The notes beneath the pieces were generated by a model. The model did not search any database and was not told where the DNA came from. It was given only the letters and a program-made list of their open reading frames with translations. A stretch of 64,000 bases of DNA from an uncultured Acidobacteriota bacterium. Its GTDB lineage: Bacteria > Acidobacteriota > Thermoanaerobaculia > UBA5066 > Gp7-AA6. The translations under genes and the position numbers were made by a program. The first letter of the stretch is position 1, and each line of letters starts with the position of its first letter. Below, piece by piece: positions 44,701 through 46,023 of this stretch. The stretch covers positions 572,406 through 636,405 of the forward strand of contig CAVULG010000007.1 of the NCBI GenBank assembly GCA_963742245.1, in the 5' to 3' direction.

Positions 44701-46023
44701 TCGTAGGTCGGCGGGTCGCCGGGGCGCAGGCGCCGGTAGATCTCGAGGATCGCCTCGTTCCGGGTCTTGTGGGTGTCCTTGCGGATCGTGTTGACGAGGA
44801 CGTCGGAGGAAATGTCCCACTCGGGGAAGAAGATCTCGACTTCCTTGATCCCCCGCTCCTTGAGGGCCTCGACCGCTCCGGCGCCGAGCTCCTGGCCGGC
44901 CTCGAAGAGAACCTCGCCGGTCGACAGGTCGACCACGTCGCCGAGGAAGCAGGCCTTCTCGATCGCCGACTCGTCGACCGAGCGCTCGATCGATCCCTTG
45001 CGGGCGATCTCCTTCTGGTCCTCGCCGGTGAGCTTGATGCCCGCGTACACGACCTTCGTCTCGCGCTTGACGCGCGCATAACGGTCGCGCATCTCCTCCT
45101 GCTTGAGCACGTCCTTGCCGACCGTCAGGTGCGCGCGACCCCTCTCGAGGCGCGCCGCCACCGGCGCGTAGAACTGGCGCAGGATCGCCTCGTCGGTCTC
45201 GAGACCCAGCGCCCGCAGGAAGATCGTCGCCGGGAACTTGCGCTTCCGGTCGATGCGGACGAAGAGGACGCCCTTCTGGTCGTACTCGAACTCGACCCAC
45301 GAGCCGCGGTACGGAATGATCTTGGCGAGGTAGCCGTGGGCGGATTCCTTGGTGAAGAACACGCCCGGCGAGCGATGGAGCTGCGACACGATGACGCGCT
45401 CGGTCCCGTTGATGACGAACGTGCCGTGCTCGGTCATCAGGGGGATGTCTCCGAAGAAGACTTCCTCTTCCTTGGCGTCGCGCATCGTCTTGACGCCCGT
45501 CTCGGGGTCCTTGTCATAGACGAAGAGACGGAAGGTGACCTTGAGGGGCACCGAGAAGGTCATTCCCCGCTCCTGGCACTCGGCCACGGAGTACTTCATC
45601 TGCAGATCCACGGGGTTGCCGCAGACGTCGCAGAGGGTGACCTTGTTCGGGTTCTGCGACGCCGCACTTGTCGCACGACACGACCTCCTCGTGGGGGTGC
45701 GCGGTGACGATCCGGGCGCCGCAGGAGCGGCAGTCCATGCGCAGGTGCTCCAGGCCCTTGAGACGCCCGCACTTGCACTCCCAGTTGCCGATCGCGTACT
45801 TGACGAACTGGAGCTCGCAGGCTCCGCGGAAGTCCGCGAACGGGAACACGCTCGTGAACACCGCCTGGAGCCCGGACTGGTCCCGCTCCTCCGGCAGCAG
45901 GTTCATCTGCAGGAAACGCTCGTACGACCGGCGCTGGACGTCGATCAGGTTGGGAAGATCCATGAACGATCGGATCTTCGAAAAGTTCTTTCGCTCTTCC
46001 AAAACGGCGACTTCAGTCGACAT
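41772..46023 (-). CDS. rpoB: DNA-directed RNA polymerase subunit beta; N-terminal ~125 aa (ORF 45514..46023 frame) and main body (ORF 41772..45611 frame) joined by apparent 1-nt indel at ~45640-45660; contains Cys-rich insertion
   Basis: N-term [39 protein letters not shown]...[11 protein letters not shown]; body ...[25 protein letters not shown]...; both frames open 45612-45660; deleting one C of gaaCCCgaac gives continuous ...[28 protein letters not shown]. Confidence 0.9.

Follow-up and report, generated by a model that had tools for sequence, protein, structure and literature searches.

An eight-cysteine, putatively zinc-binding insertion in the RNA polymerase beta subunit of Acidobacteriota

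Lineage-specific insertions are common in RNA polymerase (RNAP) and often act as regulatory handles, examples being SI3 of E. coli and the insertions of Thermus and mycobacteria. In Archaea and eukaryotes, the second-largest RNAP subunit (Rpb2) has a C-terminal zinc ribbon. Acidobacteria carry the beta-subunit insertions beta-i4, beta-i9, and beta-i11 (PMC2939025), and a 2024 survey of AlphaFold models states that the lineage-specific domains inserted into beta belong to BEAN, in a text that does not mention zinc, cysteine, or ribbon (PMC11515920). Here, we describe a cysteine-rich insert in the product of rpoB, the gene for the beta subunit, encoded on a 64,000-nucleotide stretch of DNA (hereafter the window) from an uncultured Acidobacteriota bacterium (GenBank assembly GCA_963742245.1, contig CAVULG010000007.1, positions 572,406 to 636,405). 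An earlier note on this DNA, made from the sequence alone, had drawn attention to the segment. The best overall explanation, to which we assign a probability of roughly 0.75, is that the segment represents a vertically inherited insert in the beta1 domain with the capacity for two zinc ions and that a break in the reading frame within it is an assembly error.

The insert resembles beta-i4/SI1, beta-i9/SI2, and beta-i11 (the BBM2/BEAN insertions) in that it is vertically inherited and clade-restricted and interrupts a conserved beta domain at a surface loop. It differs in that BBM2/BEAN insertions comprise ~60–120 aa or more and are metal-free, whereas the insert is of a Cys4+Cys4 type, and it is positioned ~150 residues upstream of beta-i4. 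Pfam and Foldseek searches with the insert, which comprises 59 aa with 8 invariant Cys, returned zinc-ribbon families only, which argues against membership in BBM2/BEAN. It also resembles the Rpb2 ribbon, as both are zinc modules of the second-largest RNAP subunit, but that ribbon belongs to another lineage and lies at the other end of the protein, in the clamp region, and no sequence relation between the two was detected here.

The earlier note had allowed that homologous insertions might already be well described in this clade, but no description of a zinc insertion in the beta subunit of Acidobacteria was found in the searchable papers, a search that did not extend to the 2010 work of Lane and Darst. 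The catalog of Lane and Darst reportedly included Acidobacteria and is said to number three insertion sites before beta-i4, and it may list the insert. Judged from its sequence, the insert apparently represents a zinc-binding type of lineage-specific RNAP insertion that is undescribed for bacterial beta and that is similar to a zinc domain of the partner subunit. Acidobacteriota rank among the most abundant bacteria in soil, and the module is present in no solved RNAP chain in the copy of the PDB that was searched. A metal-binding beta insertion would fall outside of the BBM2/BEAN class that is said to cover beta insertions. The insert also offers a clean molecular synapomorphy for Acidobacteriota and a ready target for deletion and cryo-electron microscopy work.

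The features of rpoB and of the insert are as follows, where k1 to k4 denote the four Cys pairs:

41772..46023, minus strand: rpoB (RNA polymerase beta), ~1416 aa with the surplus base removed; defined from the open reading frame (ORF) list, translations, Pfam, and alignment with beta sequences in the PDB.
45609..45786, minus strand: the insert, 59 codons plus 1 surplus nucleotide, with eight Cys in four pairs (k1–k4); NWECKCG...CDVCGNPV.
45703..45786, minus strand: unit 1 of the insert (k1, CKC, and k2, CRSC), CxC-x12-CxxC, similar to the beta-prime zinc domain.
45609..45684, minus strand: unit 2 of the insert (k3, CDKC, and k4, CDVC), CxxCGxxNxNxxxxCxxCGxPV, a PF13240/DZR-type ribbon that holds the frameshift.
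45659..45659, minus strand (A on the plus strand): surplus T, a 1-nt insertion that shifts rpoB by +1; defined from alignment with 8 relatives and a codon-usage scan.
45514-46023, minus strand: ORF of the rpoB N-terminus (P0011), 169 aa, ending in nonsense past the frame change.
41772-45611, minus strand: ORF of the rpoB remainder, 1279 aa, in the next frame, continuing as a normal beta subunit.

Homology across the N-terminal regions and the adjacent rpoC identify the product as a bacterial beta subunit. The N-terminus matched the Pfam family RNA_pol_Rpb2_1 (E 8.8e-10), and the corrected N-terminus matched solved beta chains in phmmer searches of the PDB with E-values down to 2.5e-44. The Cys-rich segment that the earlier note had reported in rpoB was recovered on the minus strand with all four pairs (CKC, CRSC, CDKC, and CDVC).

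The insert was missing from all 46 distinct sequences of solved bacterial beta subunits that were recovered when the corrected N-terminus was compared with all PDB chains using phmmer. In these 46 alignments, query residues 1–80 corresponded to chain residues ~1–83 and query residues 142/144–223 corresponded to chain residues 82/86–163, with the query being ~60 residues longer. The proposition that the flanking beta segments are contiguous elsewhere therefore holds in 46/46 distinct solved beta sequences. Outgroup beta proteins that were retrieved in passing likewise read G[ED][PV][KR]YDV.EC at the insert site and had no insert. Because outgroup beta is contiguous there, the insert was taken to comprise NWECKCG...C..CG plus ~4 residues, bounded by the Gly of 'IG' on one side and by '[DN]PV' on the other. 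This site corresponds to approximately G76–P78 of E. coli beta (~76 to ~80), within the beta1 (protrusion) domain. The insert region was also matched by the isolated beta1-domain chains 3mlq_A, 4xax_A, and 4kbj_A, which we take to be constructs from the Mfd-RID and CarD complexes.

The architecture of the insert is conserved. The spacer between k1 and k2 is 12 residues in all 112 distinct inserts and that between k3 and k4 is 10 residues in 112/112, with one further sequence (P0285) having 11 when read by eye. The spacer between k2 and k3 varies from 13 to 16 residues, and k2 itself is either CxxC or CxxxxC. Conservation is highest in unit 1 (W 100%, K 98%, G 97%, L 96%, G 99%, L 100%, L 100%, and R 96%). 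When an N-terminal beta fragment of 628 residues was modeled with AlphaFold2 using a 30-sequence alignment, the insert had a predicted local distance difference test score (pLDDT) of 88–92 throughout; the pLDDT of the insert modeled alone was 68.7. The high pLDDT in the context of beta1 argues for a defined, well-packed fold. Together, the alignment with PDB sequences and the conservation support the earlier proposal of a lineage-specific N-terminal (beta1) insertion with eight conserved Cys, sufficient for two Zn sites.

To determine the distribution of the insert, two patterns derived from it were scanned against GTDB (one genome per species), yielding at least 600 stretches. Of 600 pattern-matched stretches, 588 were confirmed by tblastn, indicating that relatives of the insert occur in at least 588 species genomes. 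The best 80 of these confirmed relatives, which were analyzed in detail, were from metagenome-assembled genomes (MAGs) of Acidobacteriota affiliated with Thermoanaerobaculia, Terriglobia (Terriglobales, Bryobacterales, and Acidoferrales), Polarisedimenticolia, and Holophagales, and a protein from Vicinamibacteria also carries the insert. All eight Cys are present in 80/80 loci. A profile of the insert searched against 1.84 billion proteins matched 990 cluster representatives at E <= 1e-3; those matched in a single stretch were N-termini of beta, with the match at approximately residues 80–140, and those matched in several stretches were DZR-type repeat proteins. Full-length beta proteins of 1443 aa in NCBI carry the insert and are annotated simply as subunit beta. 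Collectively, these observations indicate that the insert is a phylum-wide feature of Acidobacteriota rather than a peculiarity of the genome from which the window derives.

The same data bear on whether the insert is itself an artefact of assembly or annotation. Short, chimeric, or frameshifted entries are numerous in the databases, and the earlier note had named an assembly chimera as a potential explanation. Yet at least 588 independent species genomes, from both short-read and long-read projects, encode the insert in frame, and full-length NCBI proteins contain it, such that we give this explanation virtually no credence. The insert is under purifying selection, with a ratio of non-synonymous to synonymous substitution rates (dN/dS) of ~0.36 overall in pairwise comparisons. 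The corrected insert of the window and that of locus L001 encode an identical protein (dN 0) and have a dS of 0.39.

One contig among the detailed loci, L013 (JBLMXB010000142.1, 5.3 kb), is from a MAG labeled Hyphomicrobiales and encodes a Thermoanaerobaculia-type rpoB with an insert that is 88% identical. This contig was probably mis-binned, and it is the sole named case from outside the Acidobacteriota among the matches listed.

The rpoB of the window cannot be read in a single frame. A tblastn search returned two high-scoring segment pairs, in frames 1 and 2, and the insert peptide that the earlier note had presented as one reading proved, from the translations, to be two frames spliced together, with its '(E/N)' marking the +1 junction. 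When the DNA of the window was aligned with the eight closest loci of other genomes, exactly one surplus base emerged in the window, GGCG-T-CGCAGAAC, whereas the eight close relatives lack the surplus T and are in frame through CG[AT]QNPN[KR]V. Codon usage was scanned over the entire window, in place of an uninformative GC3 frame track, and two sites were identified at which the coding frame changes with neither a stop nor a start. The first is at 45658/45659 in rpoB and the second is in the following gene:

33162-35247, minus strand: fusA (elongation factor G, EF-G), with a frameshift at ~35027-35041.

Translation of fusA places the N-terminal 74 residues (...TTCFWK) in one frame and the rest in another, and the junction (...tggaag-c-gacgactac...) is compatible with one surplus or two missing bases. 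The scan detected no frame break in the other genes of the cluster, and Pfam searches with seven other suspicious ORFs revealed no further clear frameshift.

Several observations suggest that the frame break in rpoB is very probably an indel error of the assembly rather than biology, and that the real protein is one continuous beta subunit of ~1416 aa. The frames on both sides of the shift are under purifying selection. The insert protein of the window is identical to that of L001, yet the synonymous sites differ, and selection therefore acted on a continuous reading. Over the N-terminal 640 codons of rpoB, frameshifts were present in 4 of 27 loci from 'MFD' MAGs versus 0 of 53 other loci, as counted from record titles. 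The four frameshifted loci (L038, L055, L065, and L080) break at differing positions, with five shifts in L038, and none breaks where the window does; the other 76 of the 80 loci read straight through that site. MFD MAGs are Nanopore-only assemblies that were subjected to one round of Medaka polishing (PMC12313526). The rpoB of the window is 88–90% identical at the DNA level to loci L001–L004, two of which are from MFD MAGs. Two points tell against an assembly error. The long-read origin of the assembly is deduced from the length of the contig (1.27 Mb) and from the relatives of the window, and the surplus T is located outside of a homopolymer, homopolymers being the context of the commonest kind of Nanopore error.

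The location of the surplus T outside of a homopolymer can equally be counted in favor of a real break, whether beta is split, rpoB is a pseudogene of a degenerating genome, or the +1 frameshift is a programmed one. Moreover, the GTG at 45611 might in principle restart translation, and E. coli beta can assemble from fragments. However, the shift occurs in none of the eight closest relatives, a slippery motif was not seen in the sequence, and a split at this position would cut through unit 2 with loss of k4. In addition, the essential gene fusA is broken in the same window, broken rpoB among the related loci is confined to Nanopore MAGs with the position differing in each, and dN relative to L001 is 0 across the break. 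A real break is thus very improbable. Indel errors in rpoB and fusA split essential genes, which matters for annotation and for rpoB phylogenies that are derived from such MAGs.

The sequence context of the two breaks, at 45657-45661 and 35030-35036, is GCGTCG / GCGACG (GTCG, the complement of which is CGAC) and not a homopolymer. It is tempting to speculate that context- or methylation-related basecalling is behind both.

The earlier note had also pointed to a resemblance between the insert and the N-terminal zinc domain of beta-prime, encoded by the neighboring rpoC, and that domain was found in the window as described:

37428..41645, minus strand: rpoC (beta-prime), 1405 aa, intact and directly downstream of rpoB; defined from the ORF list and the codon-usage scan.
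41343..41420, minus strand: zinc-binding domain of rpoC, the element with which the rpoB insert was compared.

Unit 1 and the beta-prime zinc-binding domain (C70, C72, C85, and C88 in E. coli) share the same CxC-x12-CxxC arrangement and align without gaps over k1 and k2. The likeness extends over 31 ungapped columns (W-E-C-x-C-G-x-x-K ... C-x-x-C-G-x-x-[VI]), and both domains are part of the same enzyme. The differences are that the beta-prime domain lies beside the RNA exit channel, at the beta-prime N-terminus, whereas the insert is located in beta1/protrusion of beta, that unit 1 is fused to a second ribbon, and that the basic KYKR of beta-prime is replaced in the insert by xLKGL.

Profile searches of the PDB recovered the same relationship. 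The profile of the whole insert matched cyanobacterial gamma and many beta-prime chains at E-values of 1e-3 to 9e-3, with profile positions 8–39 corresponding to beta-prime residues 67–98. The profile of unit 1 alone matched 58 sequences at E <= 10 (best E 0.019), nearly all of which were beta-prime or gamma matched over both knuckles. Beta-prime/gamma was the only family to span both, and other zinc proteins matched one knuckle only. Comparison using hhalign with a small alignment of beta-prime zinc-binding domains, some of whose sequences (four) were entered by hand rather than retrieved, yielded a probability of 93.6% and a P of 2e-7 over 31 columns. When columns were permuted with the Cys held fixed (300 permutations), the hhalign score was 12.0 +/- 2.8 with a maximum of 29.2, and 0/300 reached the real score of 38.8. 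Because the null never reaches the real score, the similarity exceeds that expected from Cys spacing, and unit 1 has a significant similarity to the beta-prime domain beyond its Cys. The resemblance claimed in the earlier note thus stands when it is drawn through k1 and k2. The alignment that the note itself had proposed (WECKCG...VVSCDKCGV) does not, since it involves a gap of ~28 residues and a third pair that is species-specific.

Unit 1 may be either an ancient copy of the beta-prime domain or a close convergent look-alike. Convergence would mean that unit 1 is a pair of zinc knuckles without common ancestry with beta-prime and that the constraints on small Cys4 sites explain the likeness. 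Several results weigh against common ancestry and in favor of convergence. The match to beta-prime has marginal HMMER E-values (1e-3 to 0.8), and the Pfam families listed for the insert do not include PF04997, the family of the beta-prime N-terminus. Overlapping stretches of the insert are about equally similar to other ribbons, with k2 and k3 resembling eS27 (E 6e-4) and LysW at similar E-values, and with TFIIB and DZR ribbons also among the matches. Finally, a Foldseek search of the PDB with the model of the isolated insert retrieved generic zinc ribbons only (E > 0.5) and not the beta-prime domain, a result that neither supports nor excludes the beta-prime fold. Against convergence stand the identical k1–k2 spacing (CxC-x12-CxxC) in 112/112 inserts, the unusual nature of a CxC knuckle, the non-Cys matches (W, E, G, K, and G) that lift the hhalign score far above the Cys-fixed null (0/300), and the status of beta-prime/gamma as the sole PDB family aligned across both knuckles. 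We consider convergence a serious contender, at somewhat short of even odds. A genuine relationship to the beta-prime zinc domain would represent a rare move of a domain between subunits of one enzyme.

A different matter is whether the zinc finger of rpoC was copied into rpoB recently, either by duplication or by gene conversion from the neighboring gene. The earlier note had reported an identical stretch of 19 nt in the two genes. The 19-mer TGCGACAAGTGCGGCGTCG is indeed present in exactly two copies in the 64-kb window, at 41348-41366 and 45657-45675, with 0 expected in shuffles, and this favors a copying event. However, the surplus T is the 17th base of the repeat, preceded by 16 nt and followed by two further matching bases. 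Without it, the match is 16 nt and encodes CDKCG. Codon usage in the window is strongly biased (TGC 0.92, GAC 0.92, AAG 0.97, and GGC 0.69), and arithmetic from these frequencies gives a chance of ~0.27 that two copies of CDKCG share the same 15 nt. The identity thus spans only CDKCG, where codon bias alone can account for it, together with the erroneous T and two bases, and as a sign of copying it does not hold. Moreover, CDKCG is the third pair in the window and in a few relatives only, with CPRCG, CHKCG, CGKCG, or CNRCG in others, near relatives among them, and the flanking synonymous sites do not match rpoC. The insert is phylum-wide and therefore ancient. Collectively, these observations render a recent copy highly improbable.

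In contrast to the standalone or tandem arrays in which PF13240 and PF12773 (DZR) ribbons such as those of DZANK1 occur, unit 2 is embedded in a polymerase subunit. In other respects it is alike: it reads CxxCG-x(8)-CxxCGxP, has the N and P residues that are typical of such ribbons, and has a hydrophobic residue preceding the second knuckle. Comparison with zinc-ribbon families, which the earlier note had suggested, aligned insert residues 38–59 with positions 2–23 of the 23 in Zn_Ribbon_1 (PF13240). This family matched 13/16 members end to end at E <= 0.01 (best 2.6e-6), DZR matched 15/16, and DUF7577 matched 13/16. Scores for the first member, the only ones shown, were below the curated cut-offs (21.1 bits versus 25 for PF13240). 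Multi-repeat DZR proteins match positions 32–58 of the insert profile, as does DZANK1 match the insert. Unit 2 is accordingly best described as a predicted ordinary zinc ribbon of the PF13240/DZR type.

How the four Cys pairs would combine into two Zn sites can be read in two ways, to which we assign roughly even odds. The motif matches (unit 1 to the beta-prime zinc-binding domain and unit 2 to PF13240) and the invariant k1–k2 and k3–k4 spacers favor a tandem arrangement of k1+k2 and k3+k4. A genuine variant lineage within the Thermoanaerobaculia (P0205, from NCBI, P0207, P0208, and P0213), with the sequence GDWKSRSGRLEGLEHLRFACEHCG...RVECGACGHPNPNKVTIDEVCGTPV, suggests otherwise. In this lineage, SxS replaces CxC at k1 and DxxC replaces CxxC at k4, while k2, k3, and the spacings are kept, and a low-quality contig (L081:1000-1250) is consistent with the same variant. 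The lineage has apparently undergone a natural loss of one of its two Zn sites, and the changes are most simply interpreted as loss of a k1+k4 site with retention of a k2+k3 site, that is, a nested arrangement. Such a pairing would suit the geometry of an inserted domain, whose two ends have to come together. It would also mean that unit 1 does not bind Zn as the beta-prime domain does, which counts against kinship with that domain and adds to the case for convergence. The tandem arrangement survives the variant lineage because Asp can still ligate Zn.

Short deletion variants of the insert (P0021 and ~15 others) were considered as natural evidence of a nested topology and were rejected, as those for which the source was checked are 'src' entries without a contig record. 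In P0021, P0278, P0281–P0283, P0286, P0300, P0330, P0334, P0344, and others, differing internal deletions of the insert are joined at repeated C-x-x-C-G words. These variants have the appearance of assembly artefacts and could lead domain analyses astray.

The beta1 domain is the upstream-facing protrusion of the polymerase and forms a lining of the cleft across from the beta-prime clamp. The upstream fork of the bubble and sigma region 3 are nearby, and both Mfd-RID and CarD dock on this domain. In beta-prime, the zinc-binding domain contacts nucleic acid via basic residues beside its first knuckle. We interpret the insert as a genuine, vertically inherited, Acidobacteriota-specific beta insertion in which a 59-residue module with eight Cys, presumably binding two Zn, occupies a surface hairpin of beta1. 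The module may form a rigid, zinc-stapled knob on this upstream-facing surface and thereby provide an additional surface for contacts, bearing conserved W, K, K/R, H, and R residues that would most likely contact upstream/fork DNA or a lineage-specific factor. It may also alter access to the Mfd/CarD site. Among potential roles, we tentatively place contact with nucleic acid first, although the odds are against any single role; contact with a protein partner is nearly as likely, and a purely structural role is less likely.

A more specific scenario is that an early member of the Acidobacteriota duplicated its own beta-prime zinc-binding domain into the beta1/protrusion region of the neighboring gene, where it was fused to a second ribbon. 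This would have provided a second zinc module for binding nucleic acid or factors on the opposite pincer, on the Mfd/CarD face. We regard this scenario as rather unlikely; if true, it would constitute a phylum-defining change in the contact of the polymerase with upstream promoter DNA or regulators.

Of the genes surrounding rpoB in the window, only rpoC and fusA were, like rpoB itself, identified directly, and the others were assigned from ORF sizes and order. On this basis, positions 16236-50672 on the minus strand apparently comprise the usual large cluster of rplK-A-J-L, rpoB, rpoC, rpsL-G, fusA, tuf, the S10/spc/alpha operons, secY, and rpoA.

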